Positions 1,419 to 45,148 of a DNA stretch of 64,000 nucleotides are shown here, piece after piece. The stretch is from a bacterium. Its GTDB lineage: Bacteria > UBA8248. The translations under genes were made by a program, and so were the position numbers. Position 1 is the first letter of the stretch; each line of letters begins with the position of its first letter. Location of the stretch: assembly GCA_965213685.1 (NCBI GenBank), contig CBDBZY010000064.1, positions 896,001 to 960,000 of the forward strand. The letters are read 5' to 3'. The notes beneath the pieces are model-generated. The model saw only the letters and a list, made by a program, of their open reading frames with translations. It was not told the DNA's origin and searched no databases.

Positions 1419-4400
1419 CCCTTTATACCCGGAATAGCGCGCTTGCGCGAGTTCACGTGTAACGGAATTAATTGCGTATTTAACGCGGCACGTGTTCTAC
1501 TAATCTTTCGACTGCTCTGCCCGTCAATGGACAGGCCCAGACTGGATTAGAAGCTCCTAGAATGATATTCCAGAGGAAAAGCGCCGTTTTGATTGCTACT
1601 ACACGAAGCAGAGACGAGGATACGTGCCAAAGTAAGGTAAGTGAACGCAGCTGGCGTCTTGAATGAGAGAGAAGTGGAATAAACGAGGAAGTAAAGAGCA
1701 AATGGGTTGAAAGGAGGGAGGGAGAAAGAGATAGAGGAATGGAGGGAGGAGAGAGAGTAAGGGAGTGAGGGGGTAGAGTGGGAAGAGGGAGGCAGGTAGG
1801 CAGGGGAGGGAGTAGGTGAGCAAAACGGGGAAGGAAGTGGGAGGACAGGGGGAATGAGATTATAATGCCTAATTTTGTGTAAATGCAAGAGAAACCTGTA
1901 GTACCAAGTTGCATCCCTCCATCTATGGACTGTTCATGAAGAGTAAATGTAGATTACACACAGACAACAGTGGAGTGCTAAGGACATAGATACACAACAT
2001 GGGTGAATGGAGATGAGCACATTTACATATGACAAGTAGGGATGATGAACGAGCTTAGGTAGGGGATGGCACTCACGTACATGGCTTGGTATGCATGTAG
2101 TATCTGCATGAGTGACTCTGTACATGTATGGAGGGTAAGTGCAATGCTCATAGTAGAAGAGCATGTAAGTGAGTACACAAAAAGTGAGATGACAAACTAG
2201 ACGTTGTGTTCATCTCTGATGACATGGTGGAGGTGGTACTGCAAGAAGCAGTCATCGTCTTTGCCATTATGGCAGAGAAAGTGGTCACAATCTTTACAAT
2301 ACCATACTGTCTGGTGCCTCTGCTTTTTGTAATTGTAACAGTAGTAGCAGCGGCGACCTTTGTCTGCTCCTCGCATAGGAAAGTGTGCAGTACAAAACCG
2401 TTTGACTGGTTGAGAGACGGATGGACGGCCAGGACGCTTACGGCTGCAGTATTCTCCAATGAGCTCTCTTGCCAGGTCAGTACGAAAGGTAATCACACTT
2501 TTCATATTTGTGTTGATGTATTGCTTGTAAAGAATAAAACTATTGGTAACTGCTACATCAAATAGAAACCAAAAGATGTATTTGTAGTACTTTCTACACT
2601 TAAGTCTCACATGGTAGTATCCCCTTAGCTGGTCATTTCGATCAACGCCACCCATGTGTTGATTGTACAAGGCAATTGATTTGGGACATTTGACTTTGCT
2701 ACGTGTACCATCTTTATTCTTTCGTAACACATAACATGTACTGGTAGGGTCTGCATTAGTAGCTGCTGCACATACAGTCCTATTATCTTGCCATACTGTC
2801 ACTGTGAGATTTTTACGTTGGTATGTCTGGCTTTCTCCCCGCTCTTTGAACCCTTTCTTTGCCACAGATTTTAGCTTTTCTGGGAAACCTCTACGGTCAG
2901 CTCTCATTGTGCCGCATGCGTACAGGCCAGACTTCAAAAGGTCCAGAAGTAATCCTATACTAGTGAAATAATTATCAAAATATATGTGTCTGTATGTGTT
3001 TGTGTAAGCACGAGTTAGTGTTTTTACTACGGTTGCTCCCAAGTTTTTTTGAGTGGTGTTAGACTTTTTGCCAGTGTATACCTCAAAATCTGACAAATAG
3101 CCATTTAGGGAGTCAGATATTGCCCATACCTTTATTCCTCTCTTTATGGGCTTTTTAGGCATATACTGCTTTAGAGACGATCGACCTTTGAATCTAATCA
3201 TTGCTTCATCGACACTCATAGTCATGTGAGGGCAGTAAACCAATTGAAATGTCGTTAGCAACCTTGCAATTATTGGTCTTATTTTTCCCAACTTGTCATA
3301 CTCAGGGTTACCAGGAGGAGAAAGAGTGCTATTTTCCACAAAGTGTAAATAGCGGTGAAGCTCAAAGAATCTGTCTCGGGATATCCTTTTTGCAACAGGT
3401 GAGTAGTAGAAAAATTCGTCTGTTTTCCAGTAATGATATATTGATGGTAGATGACATATTCCCATCAATATCATGAATCCCATGTAGGCTTGAAGCTCTT
3501 CTATTGTTACCTTTTCCCATCTGTGAAACCTCTCTCCTCCCATACACTCTAAGGCATATTGGTTGGTCTGCAGCACAATGTACTGCAGTAGTGTTGATGT
3601 AAAAAATAGGCTGAAAATACCAAATGGGGAGGAAGGAAGTGGTGCTTTGGGTCCTGGCGTTTCAGTGAAGGGCTGTGTTGTCACAGCCTTTAGTGATGAT
3701 GACCACTTGATGCACTCAATACTGTATGAAAGAGGAGTGAATAAGGCATATACATGTTACACCCAAACCTTGGCGAGAATGTGCTTTACCTTTCCGTTTC
3801 CTCAGGATCACTATCAGAGAGGTTGTCAAGAAGGGTTTCACTGTCATCAAGGGGAATCTCACTGGGGGGAGGGTCTTCGAGAGGGATGTCACTACAGGGA
3901 GTACATGCGCATGTATTTGTTTTTCACTGTTCGTATGTTATCTTTGAAGGCATGTATAGGTACATGTATCCTTGTAGAAATGTAACACTTCAGTACCGTA
4001 TGTAAAAGGTGTGAAAAAGCATACACATGTTGCAGCTAACTTGCTGTCATAGGGTATATTATTTTACCTTTCCATGTCTTCAGGAGGAACATCACTGTCT
4101 GAAGTGTTGAGAGGGCTGTAAGGAGGATCATCAGGAGGAATGTCACTAGTGGGAGGATCTTCAAGGGGGATATCACTATGGGAAGTACATGTGCATGTAA
4201 TTGTTTACAACACTTTCATAATTATGCAACCTTTCAAAGGTAAATTTAGCAAAATGAGTACACTGTGTATGTACCTCACCTGTCATCTCTACTGCCATCA
4301 TCGTCAAAGCTGAAATGTGTAGAGGAGTAAGTATTCAACTATAGCACTGTGGCTGTAGTATTCTGACTTTTGCTTACCTGTTCATGCCAATCTCTTCCTC

Positions 4401-8674: not shown

Positions 8675-10476
8675 GGATCATGTGGAGAGAACGGACCCAG
8701 CGCGCTATCACTCCCGGAAGCCATACAAGTGCCCGCGCTGTCACGCCCGCGGTCACGCGCTATGCCACGCCCCCAAAATCCATACGCACCTGCATGAGGG
8801 GCTGTTAGATGTTGTAATCCGTATAGCTAGGCAATAAAGTTGGTGATCAAGTTGTTCTAGGTGCTTGCCCTAGCCCAAGCTTTCCCAAGGCCAGCCGCAA
8901 CAAGCTGAACAACCTTTGAGGTTACCCCAAGCCAACAATTGGGGCTCAGGTTGTTTCAAACGCCAAGAGCTCCAGAGTGGGACTCAGTGGAAGGCATTAT
9001 CTTTTGGATTAGTGGTAGCTTTGAAAAAAGCTGGTTTGTAAAGGAAGAAAAGGAAAGTAATAGAAAGGGAGCTTTGAAAAAAGCTGGTTTTAATGAAATC
9101 AAAAGTGGGCCCATTGCCCCGTAACCATCTACTGGGGGTACCACAAACTGATGTCCTGGAAGAGGCTGGTGAGAGCTGCAGATGCTGTCCGTCCATGTCT
9201 CTCCCTCCACATGAACTCGTCCAGATAGGACGACAGCATCTCCTCATGGACACCCTTCATCCGCTTGAATTTTCCCTTCACGCGGTTCCAATAGGACTCC
9301 ACATTCTGTGTGTGGACTCCTGTCACTGGGTCAACAAAGTGAAGGGAGTGGTTCACTGTGTTGTGTGTGGACACTGAAGGCAGCTGCTGCACCCTGCTGT
9401 AGGCAGCCCAGTGGTCACTGTGGACTATTGTTCCACTGCAGAGATGCCTCTGCATAACTGGCAACAGTGTTGTTGCTGTACGGTTGGGAATGATGCACAT
9501 AACACCAAGTCCTGGTGTCTGGCTTACATCGCACATCCCAAACACCCACACTTCATTTCTGGGGGCACGCCCACGATGGTACTGCAAAAGATTGGATTAA
9601 TAATTTTACTGTGGTTACAGATTTATGGACAACATACCTTGGGCTTGTGACAACAGAGACTCGTCAATTTGTACTGTCACACCTGGCCCTCCAAGCTGCA
9701 GTGGTGCATCTTGGTTCAAAAGCCTCCAGCTGCACACATCCCTGCAGTACTGGTAGGCCTGGATGGCCGTCTTCCTGTCCACTTCAGCCTCCTCAGCAGC
9801 ATCGGTTACAGGGTACTCCCTAGCCCACTAGTAAAATAAAACCAGCCACTGCTTCAGGGACAACCGAAACTTCTCAAAAAATGTCCCACTCCGGAGGCTG
9901 ACAGACTGTTTACAAGTGGAGACAGGACATCTCCACCTAAACGTAGATATTATGTATTAGTGTACGAATACCCGCATTTTGTATTGCGTGTATATGCAGT
10001 CTCACCTGTATTTTTCTGTGATGTCGCTCCTGGATTGGATCTCCATCGTGTGACTGCAGGCTGGGCAGACCTTCTGCTGAGCAATCAGGCCCCTGGTTTG
10101 GAACCAGTTGATAAGCTGGTCTGAGTCGCCTGCAAGAATACTGGCCAGTTCAATGATACTAGCAGCCATTCTGTTCAGTTGACTGTGACAAACTAGGAAT
10201 TCCCGCCGTTTCATTTTTGTATATAGCGCTTCGAGACTTTGACGTTTGCCGCTTTGTTTTCTATTGGACTGTCTTTTACCGCTAAACGATACCCCGCGAG
10301 ATTTTACCGCTATTGCTGTGTCAGATGCAGCATCTAACAGCCCCTCCTTTTCTTTATGCAGGTGCGTAAGGATTTTGGGGGCGTGGCATAGCGCGTGACC
10401 GCGGGCGTGACAGAGCGGGCACTTGTATGGCTTCCGGAAGTGATAGCGCGCTGGGTCCGTTCTCTCCACATGATCC
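8675..10476 (-). mobile_element. Merlin (IS1016/IS1595-like) DNA transposon
   Basis: TIRs of about 140 bp starting GGATCATGTGGAGAGAACGG (8675-8811 and 10331-10476); perfect 8-bp TSD CTGTCAAC at 8667-8674 and 10477-10484. Confidence 0.92.
9129..10169 (-). pseudogene. Merlin DDE transposase, 3 exons (10169-10006, 9936-9638, 9581-9129), disabled
   Basis: Zn-ribbon CPAC...WRCPVSTC and DDE motifs VQIDES / IVHSDHWAAY / HTQNVESYW. In-frame TAG at 9828-9830 and a frameshift just after IDESL. Confidence 0.88.
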
Positions 10477-24205: not shown

Positions 24206-30949
<6,744 letters not shown>

Positions 30950-32165
30950 ACTCTTTAAAGTAGCCTTAATTATTTGAAATGCACTTGGTGTATTTGTGTG
31001 TGTTCATTTGCTTAATATATGTACTTACATAACAGTTAGTGCATAACTGCAGAGTATGGCACATAACTGCATTTTCGGTTTGGACAAGAAGGGAGAACTC
31101 TGGGAACATAAGTGGAAATGGGGCATGGAGATGATCTGTTTACATTAACAACATCTACAAAGGTCTCACAGACCCAAGACTTGTAGCTGTGTACGTTGTT
31201 GTATGCAGTGTTTGCAGCAATGTAGTCCACAGGGATGACTTGCAATTGCCAAGACTAGATATGTCGCAGGTTGTTGGGAAGAACATCATTTCCAGCTTCT
31301 CTGTCACCTGGCTGGGCCTTCTGCCTTAGTGCATTGTCACAGGGTAAGATAGATCACCCTCTGTCTAGAACATCCTGGGCAGTTGTTGTGAATAGGGGAA
31401 TGAAGTGAGTTGGTGGACTCCACTGTGGTGGCAGTGGAGATGTTTCCAATTTCTTCTGTTTGTTAATTTTGTAGCTGACGTGTACAATGATAACAGTACA
31501 CTTTACCAGATGTTTGTCTTCAAGCACTTCCACATAGATCCAAAAATACGCGGGCATGATCAAGCGTTGGAGAAGAGACTTGGCTGTCCGCAAGTTAGCA
31601 AGGCCGCCTCACTGCAGGTACGGTACGTGCGTTGCCATAGATATTCGGAGAGGTCAGAGTGCGGGTCCCTAATATCTTTTATAGCCTCTCTTCATGCCAT
31701 TCTTAAATACTCCAATCAATTTCATCCGTCTTCAAGTTCATTTGCTAGAAAGAAAAATTCGTGACTCACTACATGTACGTATATGTGGCTACTCACGTGA
31801 CGCGACTACAGCGCGCGCTAGCTAACGCCTAGCGGCATGCGCTCGCGAACGCTATGCATGCATACATACAGTTAGCGAGCGGCAGCGTGACAAAGCATAT
31901 CGCGCATGGCGATACAGCAAATCACCATTAAGTTCCTTTCTTTAATGTATTCTAGTGCTGTATATGTCGGTTAACGGAAGGTTAACCGAGGTTAACATAC
32001 CGGTGCCGTGGAGCATGCGCCTTCCGCTGGGATGGCCTGGCCGGTCACGCATGCATATGCCTATAGCGGAACACGTGGCTGTTAGTTGCCAGCATTTGTG
32101 GCTGCCTATTGCCTGCAGTTGTGGCTGTCTGCCCGGATTATTTTTCTTCTTGCCGAATATCCTTT

Positions 32166-34363
32166 ATGGTCGACACTGAGGAGCGTGGTACCGGGACCCC
32201 AACCGGCGGCGAGGTGGAAGGAGTACCCGGGACGTCAGGCGGAGTGCTGGGGATGACGCTGTCGCCGGAGCAACTGGCGCTGATCGACGGCATGATCGCC
32301 GCCCGCCTCGCTGCCGCGACGGGCCATACCACTGCTCCCGACCCAGCCACCTCCGGGGCAGGAGGAGCGACATCAGCTGCGACCCCTTTTTTTTATAGTG
32401 ACAAATTTGTGCCAGTGTGGCACAGCCTACAGGAAATATAGGTACAAGAGCTAATACTAATCCTGAGGCCAAAAAGAAATAGAACAAAAAAAACATACAC
32501 AAAGAAAAAGGAAATGTAAAGCAACAACGGAAAGAAATAAGAGGAAAGAAAGGACACAATAATTACTGACTACAGCTGCATTATGAGTCTTTTGAACATT
32601 GCTGGGGATGATAGTTCTGTTGTGTCAAAAGGGAGGTCATTCCAGCAGGTGATGGCAGAAGGAAAAAAAGAGTGCTTGAAAGAGTTTGTGTGGTACAGAG
32701 GGAGAGTGAGCTGATGTTGATTTGCATGTCTGATGGCATATGGAATATTCCTGGGTTGCAATGGAGACGATGGTAGCAAAATATTACCCTTAACCATATT
32801 AAATAATGTGAGCAGTTTCATCTTCTTTCTGACATTGAAACAGCATGAAAAGTGGTCAGAAAGAGACTCATAGTTAGCTCTCCATTGCTTTGACCACACC
32901 CTTAAAGCAAACTGGTGAACATTCTTGATGGCTGTTTTGTCTTTGAGCAGGTGGGGACCCCAAACCACACAACCATATTCTAAGTGGGGCATAATCACAG
33001 TTTTGAACAGAACATGTAGAGTATGTACATTACAGTACGCATAGAAGTTTCGAAACAATTTCAGTCAGTTTGCTGGATTTGTTGCACTGTATTTGAATAT
33101 AATGGTTCCATGATAGATCCTCAGAAAAATTTAATCCGAGATATTTATAATGGGAAACTCTTGTAAGTGGTTGGCACTCTCCAGTATATATGTTAGTTGT
33201 AGGAACAGTTGGATGTGACTTCCTGGAGAACAACATGTAACAACTCTTCTGAGAATTCAGAGTGAGGTGATTGTTGGTAACCCAGGTACGATACCTGGTA
33301 AGTTATCATTCGCAGTTACGCTGTAGGCAGCCAGTAATGGCCCGATTGTTTTGTCTCGTTCGCTGTGTTTTTGTCTCGGCTGGCGCCGGGTCCCGGTCTC
33401 CGGGTCCCACCACCAACCGACTGATGGGGTCGTTCATACCCAGTTCTTTGTCTTTGCTTTTCAGGCTCGCTGCCGGTGTTCTCATCAGCGACTCTGCCGT
33501 CCACTGACGGTGGAACGGCTGTGGGGTCTTCTGGCCCCGCCCTCGTGTGGCCGACGGCTGTCTCTTCTGTCCCGAGTGGACCGGCCCCCTCAACAGCCGA
33601 TTTGGCACGCTTGCCGGGGTTCGGCTCTGTTCCCCCGAAGCTCGTGAAGAGAATTGTGGAGGAGTTTGTCGATATCTGGGAGCTCCTCCCTGAGTCATGG
33701 CAGCTAGAGTCCGAAGGCACCTGCTGCCACTCGAAGCGGCTGCGCCGCAGCCTGGTCACGGACATCGGTCTGTGGACCCAATGTTACGCCACGATGGCCG
33801 CGATTCTCTCATCCGCCTATCCCGAGAAGGCCCCCCATCTCTTCGCCTACCTGCGAACGGTCACAAAGGCAAGTCGCACGTTCGAAGGGTCAGCGTGGGC
33901 CTCCTATGATGTAGCCTACCGCCTGCAGGCAGCGAATCGTGGCTCCCTCGACTGGGGTGTTGTCGACCCCGCCTTGTACAATGAGGCCTTCGCTGGCCGG
34001 GCTAAGGTGGTGCCTCGATGTCGGTACTGCCTGGCCGACACACATGGCTCCCAGGAGTGTCTTCACTCGCCACTGGACGGGCCTGGTGGGAGCGTTACCC
34101 CGGTCGATGGCCGTGCTCCGCGCCCACAGCGCACCCGGCCGGGAGTTGCCGGGAAGATCATCTACGTCGGCCGCAATGCCGATACGCCCACCTCTTCTCT
34201 AAGTGCCGACGCCCACACCCACAGGCCGAGTGTGAAGAAGGGCACAGGCAGCAGCTTCCCACCATGCCTCCGGCTTCTCCCCAGTCCGTCCCCCGGGGGC
34301 CCTCGGGAGTTCCTAACCAGACGGCCTAGTCTTCTCCCATTCCGGAGAGACTGCCATGGATGA
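32166..34363 (+). pseudogene. gag-like ORF1 of the YR retrotransposon (leader exon 32166-32386 plus 33296-33297, intron 33298-33464, exon from 33465)
   Basis: FVDIWELLPE...LWTQCYATMAAIL...WASYDVAYRLQAA...DWGVVDPALY...CRYCLADTH gag-like motifs; leader exon interrupted by a LINE; probable frameshift near the 3' end. Confidence 0.75.
32387..33295 (-). mobile_element. 5'-truncated CR1/L2-type LINE inserted in the gag leader exon
   Basis: Poly(A) tail seen as T run at 32387; RT C-terminal motifs HYKYLGLNFSEDLSWNHYI, PHLEYGCVVWGPHL, SFFPSAITCWNDLP; AT-rich relative to the host element. Confidence 0.88.
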
Positions 34364-34454
34364 CTGCGAGGCCCCCAGAGCCGGAATTATTGTGTTCATT
34401 GTTACCTTGCTATTCTGCTTGTGTTATCAGCTATTGCATCTTGCTCTCCCACAG

Positions 34455-35465
34455 GCGCGTACGCATATACGGGGGACCTAGTAGCATTGAATGGGGAGGG
34501 TCCGGATAACCCCTCGCCGAGCGACCCCGCCCTGCAGCTAATATCATCACCTCTCACTAGTCGACTGCAGCAGTGGCGGGAGAGGCTCTCCCCTCACCCG
34601 GATCAAGTGTTCGTTAACTATGTGCTGGGGGGGCTCGAGCATGGTTTCCGCATTGGCTACCGGGGTGGTATCCGGCTGACCGCGGCAGCGGGTAACCTGC
34701 ATTCAGCGAGGATGCATCCGGAGGTGATTGACAACTATATCTCCGCAAAAGTCAAAGGGGGCAGAATGCTAGGTCCGTTTCGCCCAGGTGCGATCTCGCG
34801 TCTCCACTTGAGTCGCATGGGCGTGATCCCCAAGAGCCACACCCCTGGCCGTTGGCGGCTGATTACTGATCTGTCCCACCCCGAGGAGTAATCAGCCGCC
34901 AACGTTAATGACGGAATCCGACCAGAGCTGTGCTCCCTCAAGTACACCTCCGTCGAGGCTGTCGCGGCGATTGCCTCCCGACTCGGCAGGGGGGCTCTGT
35001 TGGCCAAGCTGGATATAAAGTCGGCCTACCGTCTGATTCCTGTACACCCATGCGACCGGCACCTCCTCGGCATAGAGTGGAGGGGCGCCCACTACGTCGA
35101 CCCGTTCGGCCTTCGTTCGGCCCCTAAAGTATTTACTGCCGTGGCAGACGCTCTACACTGGGCCATTGTACGTGAAGGGGTGCCGATAGTTGACCACTAC
35201 CTCGACGATTTTATTACGCTGGGCCCACCAGACTCTGCGGAATGCCAGTAAAACCTCGACAGAATACTGTCTGTTTGCGCCGACCTGGGTGTTCCCCTAG
35301 CGTTGGCAAAGCTCGAGGGCCCGTCACACCGTCTGACATTTCTTGGCATCGAGCTGGATACGATGGAGGGCGTACTGCGCCTCCCCCAGGATAAGCTGTG
35401 CCGCCTGAGAGGTCTCCTGGCCCAGTGGTTGCAACGTAGAGTGTGCCGCCGTCGTCAGCTCTTCT
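34455..35465 (+). pseudogene. Reverse transcriptase of the YR retrotransposon
   Basis: GLEHGFRIGY, GVIPKSHTPGRWRLITDLSHP, YLDDF; stops at 34889 and 35249 plus a frameshift. Confidence 0.9.
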
Positions 35466-35469
35466 TCGC

Positions 35470-36725
35470 TACTGTGAGATCGGTTTAGCCTAGTCGACGC
35501 GGAGGACTTACCGCTCTGGATTGAACCGTTTTCTGTCTTTTTGTACTGCATACGGGGTACCGACCCCTTTTCCGGTGTCTGAGACCCTCTTATGCTACTT
35601 TGTCGCATCGCTAGCGCGGGACGGCATTGCGCCGGCTACCATAAGAAACTATCTGGCGGCGGTTCGACACGCCCAGATTGTACTAGGTCTCCCTGAGCCT
35701 CGAGAATCCTCTACCTTACCCCGCCTCAGGCTCGTCCAGATTGGGGTGTTAAGGGAGGGCGAGTCATGATTGCGTTCTTCGTCAATTACTCTACCGTCGC
35801 TTTCCCCCTACATTTACCAACGCTAAAACGACAGCAATTATTTGGCGCGGTTGCAAATTCGCTGGGAAAAAATTTACTCCCCTTTGGCGAGCATCCACCT
35901 CTTCACCGGTTGGCGCCACACAGCGCCGCACGTCCAACGGTAGCGGGAAATATGAATTTTTCCCAGCGAATTTGCAACCGCGCCAAAGAATTGCTGTCGT
36001 TTTAGCGTTGGTAAATGTAAGGGGAAAGCGACGGTAGAGTAATTGACGAAGAACGCAATCATGACTCGCCCTCCCTTAAGGGAGCACGCGAGTTCGGGTA
36101 CCGCGGTAGCAACCAGACTCCCTATTACGCCGGTCCTCCTCCGCCTCCTGCGCCCGACGGGGGTGTCGAGAGGTTACGACGAGTGCCTTCGGTGGGCGGC
36201 GGCGTCTCTGTGCTTTTTTGGGTTCTTCCGCGCTGGTGAGATCACAGTCCGACGGTGTCTGCCTTCGATGAGGCAGTCCATCTCTCCTGGGGCGATGTGT
36301 CAGTGAGCGAGGATGGCCGCACCCTGCGAGTGTTCCTGAAGCGCACCAAAACTGACCAGCTAATGAGAGGTACCGAGGTCTACGTCGGCACTACCGCGAA
36401 CGACCTCTGCCCGGTCACGGCCATTCGAGATTACGTTGCCCGCAGGGGCGTGTCCCCTGGAGCTTTCTTTCGCCTCGCAGACGGAACCCCGCTGACGAAC
36501 GTGGAGCTGGTCCGGCAGGCGTTATCCCGAGCTGGCGTCTCAACCAGCGGCTACTCGGGCCACAGCTTCCGTATCGGAGCTGCTACGGCGGCGTTTCAGG
36601 CCGGGGTTCCAGACTCAGTCATCCAAGCCCTTGAACGCTGGGCCAGCCCCGCCTTTCTACGCTATATTCGAACCCCGCGGGGGCACCTGGCGCAGTACTC
36701 GTACGCCTTGGTGCCAAGGAACTGA
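35470..36725 (+). pseudogene. Tyrosine recombinase of the YR retrotransposon
   Basis: Core-binding domain (STRRTYRSGLNRFLSFC...TIRNYLAAVR) and R-K-HxxR-W-Y catalytic set; split by a MITE at 35753-36075 and a frameshift near 36250. Confidence 0.9.
35753..36075. mobile_element. Young 323-bp MITE with TTAA TSD and GG termini (Kolobok-like)
   Basis: TTAA|GGGAGGGCGAGTCATG...CATGACTCGCCCTCCC|TTAA with near-perfect TIRs of about 120 bp; removing it restores the YR frame (IGVLREHASSG). Confidence 0.85.
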
Positions 36726-36978
36726 ACTCGTCTTCTTATGTGCTGTTGTTGTTGTTGGTTGTTGTTGTGAGATATATACTGTAATAGTCACGCCTCGAAG
36801 GCCGTAGACGCATGACTCTGCGCTATTAGGGTGTCTTGGGGGGGTGAACCCCTCCCACTCCTTGGGCAGGGGCGGAGCCTCACGCCGGGAAGGCTCCACC
36901 CACCTGGGGGGAATACCCCCGTTGACACGCCGACCATAGATATTTACCTTAGGTACGGGATTGGAAGCATGAGATTAA

Positions 36979-37678
36979 CCCGAAACACTCCTCGTTGTTC
37001 ACGGAAGTGATAAATGGGGTAGCCGGTATATAGGAAACAGGGAAGAAGACAGATTTGTCTTGGTTTTCTCCGTTTACTGGTTTTAGCTTCGAGACAAGAC
37101 TAGACAAGACAACGGTATATGTGGGCTATCACGGACACGTGCGGTGCGCGAGGGGAGGAGGTACTTTTGTGTACCTGCTGCGTCCTCGGAGAGACAGCTA
37201 TGGCCAAGCATTCTCGCTTTATACGTTCGACAATGTCAACTATGTGTCGTGGTGCATAGTACACGGGGCGTCTGTCATCATGTTGAGTGCAAACACTGAT
37301 ATAGCTCTCCTCTAGCACGAACTGTCAACACTCATGTACTCCAACATGAAGACAGAGGCCCCACGCACAGTACACCACGACACATAGTTGACATTGTCGA
37401 ACGTGTAAAGCGAAAAAGCTTGGCCATAGCTATCTCTCCGAGGACGCAGCAGGTACACAAAGGTACCTCCTCCCCTCGCGCACCACACGTGTCCGTGATA
37501 GACGACGCATGTTGTTAAGCCTAAGGCCTATGTCCGTTCCCTCACTTGTTGAAGTATAACAATAGTCTTGTCTCGAAGTTGGAAGCAGTAAACCAAACGA
37601 AATCACCAGTTTCCCTCTTCTTTCCTAACCGATGCTTAAAACATTCCACTTCCGGGAACAACTAGGAGTGTGTCAGGC
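36979..37678. mobile_element. Foldback element of about 700 bp
   Basis: Inner arms about 37127-37254 and 37373-37501 nearly identical in inverted orientation; outer arms ACACTCCT.GTTGTTC.CGGAAGTG / CACTTCCG.GAACAAC.AGGAGTGT; left end follows TTAA-CCC. Confidence 0.75.
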
Positions 37679-38771
37679 GATAATGTACAGAGTGAACGGG
37701 CGCACGTGATCTGCTATGCGCCGACTGCCATAACGCAGCCCAGTCCTCTGGCCATACCCAAATGGCCCCCAATCGCTGGGTCCATGACATACGATGGGAA
37801 TGGTGGTTAGAGGGTGGGACTGGGCTATCTAGAGGAAGGTAGGTTAACTTAATACAAATTTTGCTGCACCACTTATTTTTACAAACCACAGGCCCAGAGG
37901 CCGAGGAGGGCCGACAGCGTCACGTGAGTCCCGCGAAATTGCTTGCCCATAGAAACACGGTTTCCTGGTGTGTCCATACTGCTTGAGGTACAAGCCTGGG
38001 TTTTATACTGCAGAAGTGCTATGAGGTGCGAAGACGATTGAGGCCTGGAACCCCGCGGAACCTCACCGGCGACGCAGGAGCCGAGTCAGTATGTGTTCTA
38101 CCTGGCCCACGCCCACACAGGTGCCTGCATCCACGGACAGGCGACCATGACGCTATCAAGGAACCCCCACGAGACCATAGCCATCTCTGCTTCTAGGAGC
38201 TTACGCACGCTGTCTTCACCCTTGTAGTCAGTGCCTCGTAACCAGGGCCCCTCCCACAATGGGAGGGGCCTGGGCGTGAGGAATTCATTATTGTACGTTA
38301 CGTCACTTCCTGTCGGACTCGCCGGCGCCACAGGCCGTCACACCTTTAGAGCAGTTGGGAACGGAATCAGGACAGTGGGCAGCGCCAATGGCTGTCATGT
38401 ATGTGCATATGGTGCATAGTAACCAAGTTTGCGTAAAACAATTGGGTTGACCTAGCACAGTGCGAGTGAGAGACTGCATCCACCATCCATGATTGCTATC
38501 AATGGTGAGTGTGTAAGACAGAGAGTTAGCACCAGAACTACGACATGCTGTACATAAACCATAGATAAGGGAGCTTTGAATTCCTATGCATAAACACCGT
38601 AGCTGCAGGTAGATTCTATATAAAACAGTAGCACTGTGACTGTCGTAGCTATTCATAATGTAGCGTAGTTGTACATTATCTTTACCCTCTACCGGCAATG
38701 GAACGCCAGCAGATCGTGCTCATCCTTGAGCTAGTAGCTACCACCTGTGTTGACCACTCACCGTGACAATC

Positions 38772-45148
<6,377 letters not shown>

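Follow-up and report, generated by a model that had tools for sequence, protein, structure and literature searches.

A shared leader exon and candidate alternative 3' splice sites in a family of Ngaro-like tyrosine recombinase retrotransposons

How might a retrotransposon translate its proteins when none of its open reading frames (ORFs) has a dependable start codon? The question is raised by a decayed element in a stretch of 64,000 nucleotides (nt), here called the window, which covers positions 896,001 to 960,000 of contig CBDBZY010000064.1 in assembly GCA_965213685.1. The element carries, in this order, a gag-like ORF, a reverse transcriptase (RT) ORF and a tyrosine recombinase (YR) ORF. 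An earlier note on this DNA had proposed that a short leader exon is spliced alternatively to gag or to RT. The window copy is a dead element, and the idea therefore has to be judged on its relatives. Comparison of these relatives supports a shared leader that is spliced alternatively, the splice from leader to RT being one that we infer, and the family probably uses one 5' splice site together with several alternative 3' splice sites.

The comparison set consists of 79 loci from public metagenome contigs, retrieved with a profile of the RT-encoding ORF (pol), together with locus L001, the window copy and five diverged copies from the same assembly. These 86 sequences fall into 50 subfamilies at 85% nucleotide identity. 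Scans for loci based on gag returned only L001 (1134 nt) from genome contigs and nothing from a first metagenome scan or from viral contigs. All three frames remain open in 32 of the 79 loci, distributed over 20 subfamilies, with gag of at least 270, pol of at least 560 and YR of at least 330 amino acids (aa), and the layout without ATG codons is therefore a working design and not a product of decay.

The signals on which the proposal was built are present in the window. The leader begins with the ATG at 32166-32168, and its donor, CCTG/GTAAGT (the slash marks the border of exon and intron), has its GT at 33298-33299. Reading through this donor meets a stop within ten codons, as had been claimed (GGT AAG TTA TCA TTC GCA GTT ACG CTG TAG, the TAG at 33324-33326 being the tenth). 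The last base of the gag acceptor, TCTTTGCTTTTCAG, is 33464; exon 2 starts at 33465 and continues the gag frame after a codon to which the leader contributes one base (phase 1). The RT acceptor, TTGCTCTCCCACAG, has its last base at 34454, and the RT frame is entered at 34455, again in phase 1. In-frame ATG codons are absent up to about 33790 in gag and up to 34714 in RT. A long interspersed nuclear element (LINE) is indeed nested in the leader, although its borders had to be redrawn: those at 32387-33295, derived from a target-site duplication, gave way to the joint in a LINE-free contig of sequencing run X8, which connects 32388 to 33289, skips 900 nt and places the LINE at 32389-33288. The leader exon thus comprises 32166-32388 and 33289-33297, 232 nt and not the 223 nt first given, a change of 9 nt that leaves its donor in phase 1.

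Removal of the intron between leader and gag, intron 1, is recorded in DNA. One X8 contig lacks both the LINE and the 167-nt intron: it runs to 32388, continues with eight letters and resumes at 33464. The eight letters match 33289-33296 with one difference, which makes this contig an exact fusion of the leader exon to the gag acceptor; other LINE-free contigs of the run keep intron 1. Run X8 is recorded as 'DNA?', its kind having been guessed, and precise intron removal is known as DNA only. A second example is locus L012 (WLWI01019349.1, 522-1610), in which leader and gag form a single ORF of 363 codons with no usable donor left and with the acceptors of pol and YR kept. Between shared blocks L012 is 334 nt shorter than L049, whose GT..AG intron measures 331 nt, and it is presumably a copy made from gag-spliced RNA. 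A continuous first ORF, which the earlier note had named as a sign against splicing, is thus found in copies that lack the intron precisely, and such copies are the expected product of occasional reverse transcription of spliced RNA. Three database proteins called from unspliced sequence (P0003, P0020 and P0039) agree with this: the conserved leader is followed by a non-conserved stretch that begins with residues fitting G/GTGAG, and the conserved gag N-terminus, ..SLP[VI]FS.., resumes after residues fitting ..CAG/G. Intron 1 is a conserved feature and is removed at least sometimes, as DNA copies record, and we hold with high confidence that the leader-gag intron is real.

Across the family, a leader motif lies upstream of gag in 14 subfamilies, and the motif, LSPEQLALID in the window leader, is shared with the leaders of P0003, P0020 and P0039 and of 11 loci. 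A comparison of the window leader with its relatives gave no 5-residue word in common, a search for the leader peptide among longer proteins gave 0 of 1673 candidates scored, and a first scan with a leader regular expression gave no match. Most donors read GT[AG]AG in phase 1. Of 13 subfamilies whose leader can be recognised, 11 have a phase-1 donor: 9 of the 11 scored by scan, together with L010 and the window copy. The gag acceptor has phase 1 in 25 of the 31 subfamilies that could be scored, gag has no ATG within its first 40 codons in 17 of 32, and the homologous introns of relatives measure 0.3-1.2 kb. Conservation of the splice dinucleotides, with divergence concentrated in the intron, had been suggested as a check, and both are apparent. 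The phases hold in diverged subfamilies, including those of the pol acceptor described below. In an alignment of L033 with L040, L055 and L057, from two related subfamilies, the donor and both acceptors are kept; identity is 0.76-0.77 in the gag exon (6-18 gap columns) and 0.79-0.80 in pol (0 gaps), against 0.67-0.69 in intron 1 (about 490 gap columns) and 0.61-0.62 in the spacer between gag and pol (56-59 gap columns). Indels gather in intron 1 and the spacer, and the gag and pol exons are nearly gap-free.

Chance matches in a decayed copy would be the simplest explanation of the window signals, which would then mean nothing; the copy is dead and single in its assembly, and such sites are frequent. 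The family contradicts this explanation, with the same layout in 50 subfamilies, many open copies and copies without the intron, and we find it scarcely credible.

Intron 1 also varies in content. In L024 (3850-4685), L036 (3631-4730) and L010 (4042-4637) it is filled with tandem arrays of 33-38-nt units in 14-21 copies; the window intron is short and has no tandem array. Subfamily 6 (L062, L070 and L071) has a layout of its own, being the only one in which the pol frame is open far upstream, overlapping gag by 305 nt. Its gag acceptor, ..ATGGCAG/GT, incidentally supplies an ATG where the frame opens, and its leader-like ORF, judged from protein only, has residues SGKG that fit a G/GTAAG donor.

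Whether pol depends on gag for its translation can be asked of the interval between the two. In 68 of 71 loci, 10-1279 nt lie between the gag stop and the point at which the pol frame opens, and the relative frames are 0, 1 and 2, which excludes frameshifting and read-through as routes. Both would yield Pol as a Gag-Pol fusion, as would removal of a short intron between a donor where gag ends and the pol acceptor, a version that would use the same acceptor as a splice from the leader. A fusion is suggested by the window, where a single TGA is all that seems to divide gag and RT within one frame, and by a distant database protein, P0255, with gag and pol in one frame. The appearance of the window, however, comes from a deletion in gag, and read-through of the TGA at 34361-34363 was rejected as an artefact of it. 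Donors within -90 to +30 of the gag stop (score at least 6.5) are present in only 9 of 40 subfamilies, at scattered positions and in phases 1, 2 and 0 (5, 3 and 1 subfamilies, respectively). Considering these donors alongside the gaps and the varying frames, we regard a Gag-Pol fusion in any form as very improbable.

Several signals favor a splice from the leader donor to an acceptor at the start of pol. In an automatic scan, the best AG at most 48 nt upstream of the N-terminal pol motif Y.Y..DL..L was in phase 1 in 34 of 37 scorable subfamilies, a count that rose to 35 of 37 after the mis-anchored window copy was corrected, and the site lies mostly 2-17 nt upstream of the motif. YAG sites before pol with a pyrimidine tract of at least 0.55 are in phase 1 in 32 cases, in phase 2 in 3 and in phase 0 in 2, and such a phase-1 site is found at most 48 nt upstream of the motif in 31 of 39 subfamilies. 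Acceptor phase equals donor phase in every subfamily scored for both (0, 1, 2, 3, 4, 5, 9, 10, 18 and that of the window). The codon before the junction ends in A across Ala, Thr, Ile, Val, Leu, Ser and Pro, against a background in which A takes 21% of third positions overall and A/G stands at only 8.2% of codon boundaries. Several subfamilies have stops in frame 2-8 codons before the AG. In 24 of 39 subfamilies the pol frame contains no ATG ahead of the N-terminal motif, and an RT started from its own ATG, another finding that had been named as contrary to the proposal, is not the rule.

These observations have to be set against the explanation that only the leader-gag intron is real and that Pol and YR are made by internal or non-AUG initiation, by reinitiation after gag or from an internal ribosome entry site (IRES), on unspliced or gag-spliced RNA, with a conserved Gly and pyrimidine-rich codons accounting for the AG/G before each ORF. 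A number of results favor it, or otherwise weigh against alternative splicing of the leader. Direct DNA-level evidence concerns intron 1 alone, and no listed run containing the window stretch is on record as RNA. An in-frame ATG is present upstream of the pol motif in 15 of 39 subfamilies, where internal initiation is possible. Phase-1 sites comparable to the pol acceptor are common, occurring in 256 of 1041 control windows inside pol ORFs (24.6%), and the best candidate AG was in phase 1 in 410 of 1017 control windows. None of 149 new proteins, drawn from the best 150 of 4920 matches to the pol N-terminus (E<=0.001), carries the leader motif, and neither a leader-pol nor a leader-YR junction is found as DNA among the 15 of 40 X8 joints listed. 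The donor is in phase 0 in two single-copy subfamilies (L008 and B_1169) and weak in the largest subfamily (CAG/GTAGGC); the leader is poorly conserved beyond about 12 residues, at 30% mean column identity; and the subfamilies are related, which makes their counts non-independent trials. Because phase-1 YAG sites are common in these GC-rich ORFs, a single copy proves little, and it is the comparison across the family that carries weight. There, the upstream ATGs vary in position from 3 to 255 nt and are not conserved, the A before the junction is kept over seven residues, and the agreement of phases and the stops just ahead of the AG likewise speak against this explanation. We consider it distinctly unlikely that only the leader-gag intron is real, and the conserved signals argue that the leader-to-pol splice is quite likely used.

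A third acceptor, before the YR ORF, had been suggested as something to look for, and a candidate exists. The opening of the YR frame lies within the 3' end of pol, in the pol -1 frame and with an overlap of about 110-150 nt, 1-12 codons before a pyrimidine-rich AAG/GT or CAG/GT. The best AG at this point is in phase 1 in 22 of 30 subfamilies, no ATG occurs within 50 codons of YR in 20 of 30, and when the donor is joined in silico to gag, to pol and to YR, L024, L010 and L002 each give an open frame in all three cases. The pol-frame residue at the site is either Lys, always encoded by AAG (8 of 8), or Gln, by CAG (6 of 6).

Other properties of this site are less favorable to splicing: it lies within pol coding sequence for ..SFLSK[AV]P.., a stretch with pyrimidine-rich codons in any case, several of the sites have AAG, which makes a poor acceptor, and the constant -1 relation would also suit a frameshift. 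YR alone could accordingly be made as a Pol-YR fusion by -1 frameshifting in the overlap, with Gag and Pol keeping the spliced leader. The frame relation holds in nearly all subfamilies, and in L032 the site reads T TTT TTA in the pol frame. Inspection by eye, as opposed to a systematic scan, revealed no slippery heptamer common to 11 representatives, L012 and L015 having none. The AG is kept through exchange of Lys (AAG) and Gln (CAG), the YR frame opens so shortly before it, and the leader donor can be joined to YR with an open frame in L024, L004, L010 and L002, all of which argue against frameshifting, an alternative that we consider unlikely. Because pol coding constraints could yield much of the signal, the YR site is the least secure of the three, and use of a leader-to-YR splice appears slightly more probable than its absence.

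Taken together, the signals suggest a mechanism in which transcription would start in an upstream repeat, A1, and a short first exon would hold the only dependable ATG. This exon would encode a leader of 40-170 aa, made up of a conserved helix of the PF(S/T)xEQLAWL type and a disordered linker rich in Ser, Pro and Gly, and would end with a phase-1 donor, usually G/GTRAG. The donor would be joined to a phase-1 acceptor before the gag core or to one before the conserved N-terminus of pol (RT/RNase H), and probably also to the third phase-1 acceptor inside the 3' end of pol, which would open the recombinase frame. The product of each mRNA would be leader-Gag, leader-Pol or leader-YR, and unspliced RNA would be the template copied into new insertions. 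The sequences establish the sites with their conserved phases, the gap between gag and pol, the want of conserved starts and the DNA copies free of intron 1; that the pol and YR acceptors are in fact used, in what proportions the mRNAs arise and that unspliced RNA serves as the genome are what we infer here.

A shared leader raises the possibility, which we offer tentatively and think doubtful, that the helix PF[S/T]xEQLAWL and its linker address all three proteins, Gag, Pol and the recombinase, through a shared N-terminal tag. An AlphaFold model of Gag from the intron-less L012 has a mean predicted local distance difference test score (pLDDT) of 67, with a motif helix of low confidence, about 50 disordered residues and a confident helical core. 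Foldseek found no match to the model in the PDB at E<=0.001, and a wider structure search gave generic helical bundles, with a best Z of 5.2. If the leader were such a tag, it would bring both enzymes into Gag assemblies or to one cellular site, replacing the Gag-Pol fusion of long terminal repeat (LTR) elements and retroviruses, and protein ratios would depend on how strong the three acceptors are relative to one another.

The affiliation of the family can be read from its anatomy. Pol homologs are 550-630 aa long, with Pfam RVT_1, which scores above the gathering threshold in P0126, P0121 and P0130, and the YR of L012, an intact relative, matches Cre recombinase (45-337 against 39-328, E about 2e-6). 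Pol also has motifs, DAS..WG and ADxLSR, that we take to mark RNase H; Pfam did not call RNase H. The protein ends about 60 aa beyond the ADDLSR motif. Split direct repeats are present in L036 (A1 3038-3295 and A2 9044-9301, B1 8798-9043 and B2 9502-9747) and in L010 (A1 3365-3564 and A2 9116-9315, B1 8914-9123 and B2 9378-9587), and none was found in L024. There are no inverted repeat pairs of at least 40 nt in L024, L036 or L010 (10 kb each), and terminal repeats like those of DIRS1 are thus not seen. In three pol proteins of 569-600 aa Pfam found only RVT_1 and no methyltransferase, a missing Pfam match being no proof of absence. The order gag, pol, YR, without a methyltransferase match, also differs from the DIRS1-like layout, in which YR precedes pol and pol carries a methyltransferase. 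Because of the split direct repeats, the lack of inverted repeats, the lack of a methyltransferase match and the gene order, the family appears, by its anatomy, to be one of Ngaro-like YR retrotransposons.

The window DNA itself is that of a host and not of a prokaryote. The assembly, of 71 contigs, is a mixed bin in which bacterial contigs with a guanine plus cytosine (GC) content of about 0.65 are accompanied by contigs with a GC content of 0.42-0.53, up to 1.6 Mb long and with animal-type transposons; the window sits on the largest of the latter, C64 (1.6 Mb). Several of the sequencing runs that contain the window stretch are labelled 'sponge metagenome', and the host is probably a sponge. 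The element is a single copy in the 8-Mb assembly, and the five far more diverged relatives lie on C64 and C56. Its borders (Table 1) are undefined because no terminal repeats survive, neither direct nor split repeats having been found in 30500-38500. The depth of family-homologous contigs in run X8 begins in the bin 31884-32067 and falls after 36851, and GC content is 0.55-0.69 in the element against about 0.40-0.47 in the flanks.

Table 1. Features of the retrotransposon copy in the window, with the evidence for each
Feature	Position	Strand	Evidence and remarks
Decayed YR (Ngaro-like) retrotransposon copy	31890..36850, approximate	+	X8 contig depth, GC
Leader exon, first part	32166..32388	+	ATG 32166, peptide motif LSPEQLALID, ORF
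Nested 5'-truncated LINE fragment	32389..33288	-	Poly(A) tail as T-run on + strand from 32387
Leader exon, last 9 nt	33289..33297	+	Intron-less X8 contig with CGATGCCT plus G between 32388 and 33465
Intron 1	33298..33464 (167 nt)	+	Donor GTAAGT 33298-33303; pyrimidine tract and CAG 33451-33464
Gag exon	33465..34329	+	158 homologs at E<=0.001; stop TAG 34327-34329
Gag-pol spacer, putative 3' end of longer alternative intron 33298-34454	34330..34454	+	Candidate pol acceptor TTGCTCTCCCACAG 34441-34454
Pol remnant (N-terminal domain and RT)	34455..35488	+	In-frame TAA 34889-34891, 35249-35251
Tyrosine recombinase remnant	35494..36725 (35494-35748 and 36080-36725, MITE between)	+	Stop TGA 36723-36725
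MITE, not part of element	35749..36079 (331 nt)	.	Inverted repeat, empty-site X8 contigs

Damage to the window copy comprises the LINE and the miniature inverted-repeat transposable element (MITE), a frameshifting deletion in gag, two stops in RT and loss of the RNase H region. The LINE fragment has LINE-type ORF pieces on the minus strand, in which Pfam found no match; its sole other copy in the assembly (C64:1411285-1412192) is 89.6% identical over 923 columns and matches 32387-33289. The gag exon carries a CCHC knuckle and a second Cys/His motif, and Pfam and NCBIfam assigned gag to no family. Its deletion, of about 46 nt, lies near 34135-34173, where diverged contigs have 83 letters against 37 (joint 34135>34173). 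This is why gag and RT look as though they share one frame and are one TGA apart; alignment with homologs also shows the window gag to be without the conserved ICRLFN..CRF block, and the C-terminus, ..TA and the stop, lies in another window frame (34006-34329). The RT piece aligns at 45-65% identity with P0126, P0121 and P0130, and about 250 C-terminal codons of pol are gone, including the RNase H region and the YR acceptor. YR homology begins only at residue 37 of the L012 protein, at window position 35467, and Pfam matches to Phage_int_SAM_1 (E 4.8e-4) and Phage_integrase (E 6.3e-5) are both below the gathering score.

The MITE that interrupts the recombinase ORF has inverted arms of 123 nt, 98% complementary, with TTAA on both flanks. 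Dozens of copies, 95-99% identical, occur on C16, C18, C41, C56 and C64, which suggests a MITE of piggyBac type that was active recently. Immediately 3' of the element, at 37072-37593, is a foldback with 165-nt arms (37121-37285 and 37342-37506, 90% complementary) nested within a 31-nt inverted repeat; run depth is high there, marking it as a separate repeat. Further on, a GA/GGA microsatellite at 38917-39392 is followed by an open frame of 436 codons on the + strand (39496-40806).

Splicing in retrotransposons has been described before. Introns have been recognised in transcripts from L1, Tad, kangaroo-1, Penelope and Athena, according to one account (PMC1636488). Since kangaroo-1 is a YR element, from Volvox, an intron in an element of the DIRS order has precedent. 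We found no description of alternative acceptors serving separate ORFs in kangaroo-1, Penelope or Athena, nor of splicing-based expression of Ngaro or DIRS ORFs, in a coverage of the literature that is incomplete and leaves an earlier description possible. The overviews of the DIRS order that were searched make no mention of introns or splicing (PMC3266345, PMC3783388, PMC4157794, PMC8547959), and two of them describe only ORF overlaps and frameshifted ORFs (PMC3266345, PMC3783388). To the question of how the separate or overlapping ORFs of this order are translated, a family with many apparently young copies offers an answer that can be tested. There are consequences for annotation as well. 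ORF finders and prokaryote-style gene callers give false starts, so that database proteins begin at an arbitrary Met, Val or Leu inside intron ends, and libraries of transposable elements would miss the leader exon. The intron-less copies are a natural record of the RNA species that were reverse-transcribed.

Among known elements, those of the Ngaro type are closest in anatomy. The arrangement A1-[ORFs]-B1A2B2 of split direct repeats is their definition in one source (PMC8547959), and the family shares with them a gag-like ORF, an RT/RNase H ORF and then a tyrosine recombinase, with split direct repeats in L036 and L010. Ngaro elements usually have no ORF overlaps, according to an overview (PMC3266345), whereas pol and YR overlap here by about 110-150 nt. 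The family differs further in that all three ORFs are without dependable start codons, each after a phase-1 acceptor, and in having a separate coding leader exon 0.2-1.2 kb upstream.

In expression, the nearest parallels may be found outside the YR retrotransposons. Foamy viruses make Pol apart from Gag, from its own spliced subgenomic mRNA, and the predicted scheme resembles theirs in a separately spliced pol mRNA and the absence of a Gag-Pol fusion. It differs in that the upstream exon is coding, which would give Gag, Pol and probably YR the same peptide at their N-termini, and in that the element is a YR retrotransposon and not a retrovirus. Retroviruses in general, as with donor D1 of HIV-1, use one 5' donor with several acceptors for downstream genes and keep unspliced RNA as the genome, and a single donor near the 5' end serving several acceptors would be common to both; the retroviral leader, however, is non-coding and gag-pol is translated from unspliced RNA, whereas here even gag needs a splice. 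In copia, Brierley and Flavell reportedly found in 1990 that a gag-only mRNA is made by splicing. There, too, splicing in a retrotransposon sets the ratio of Gag to Pol, but the unspliced RNA of copia encodes Gag-Pol and splicing removes pol, with neither a shared leader exon nor ATG-less ORFs. If the leader does act as a tag, the arrangement would be a third solution to Gag:Pol stoichiometry and packaging, one widespread in YR elements of marine invertebrates.

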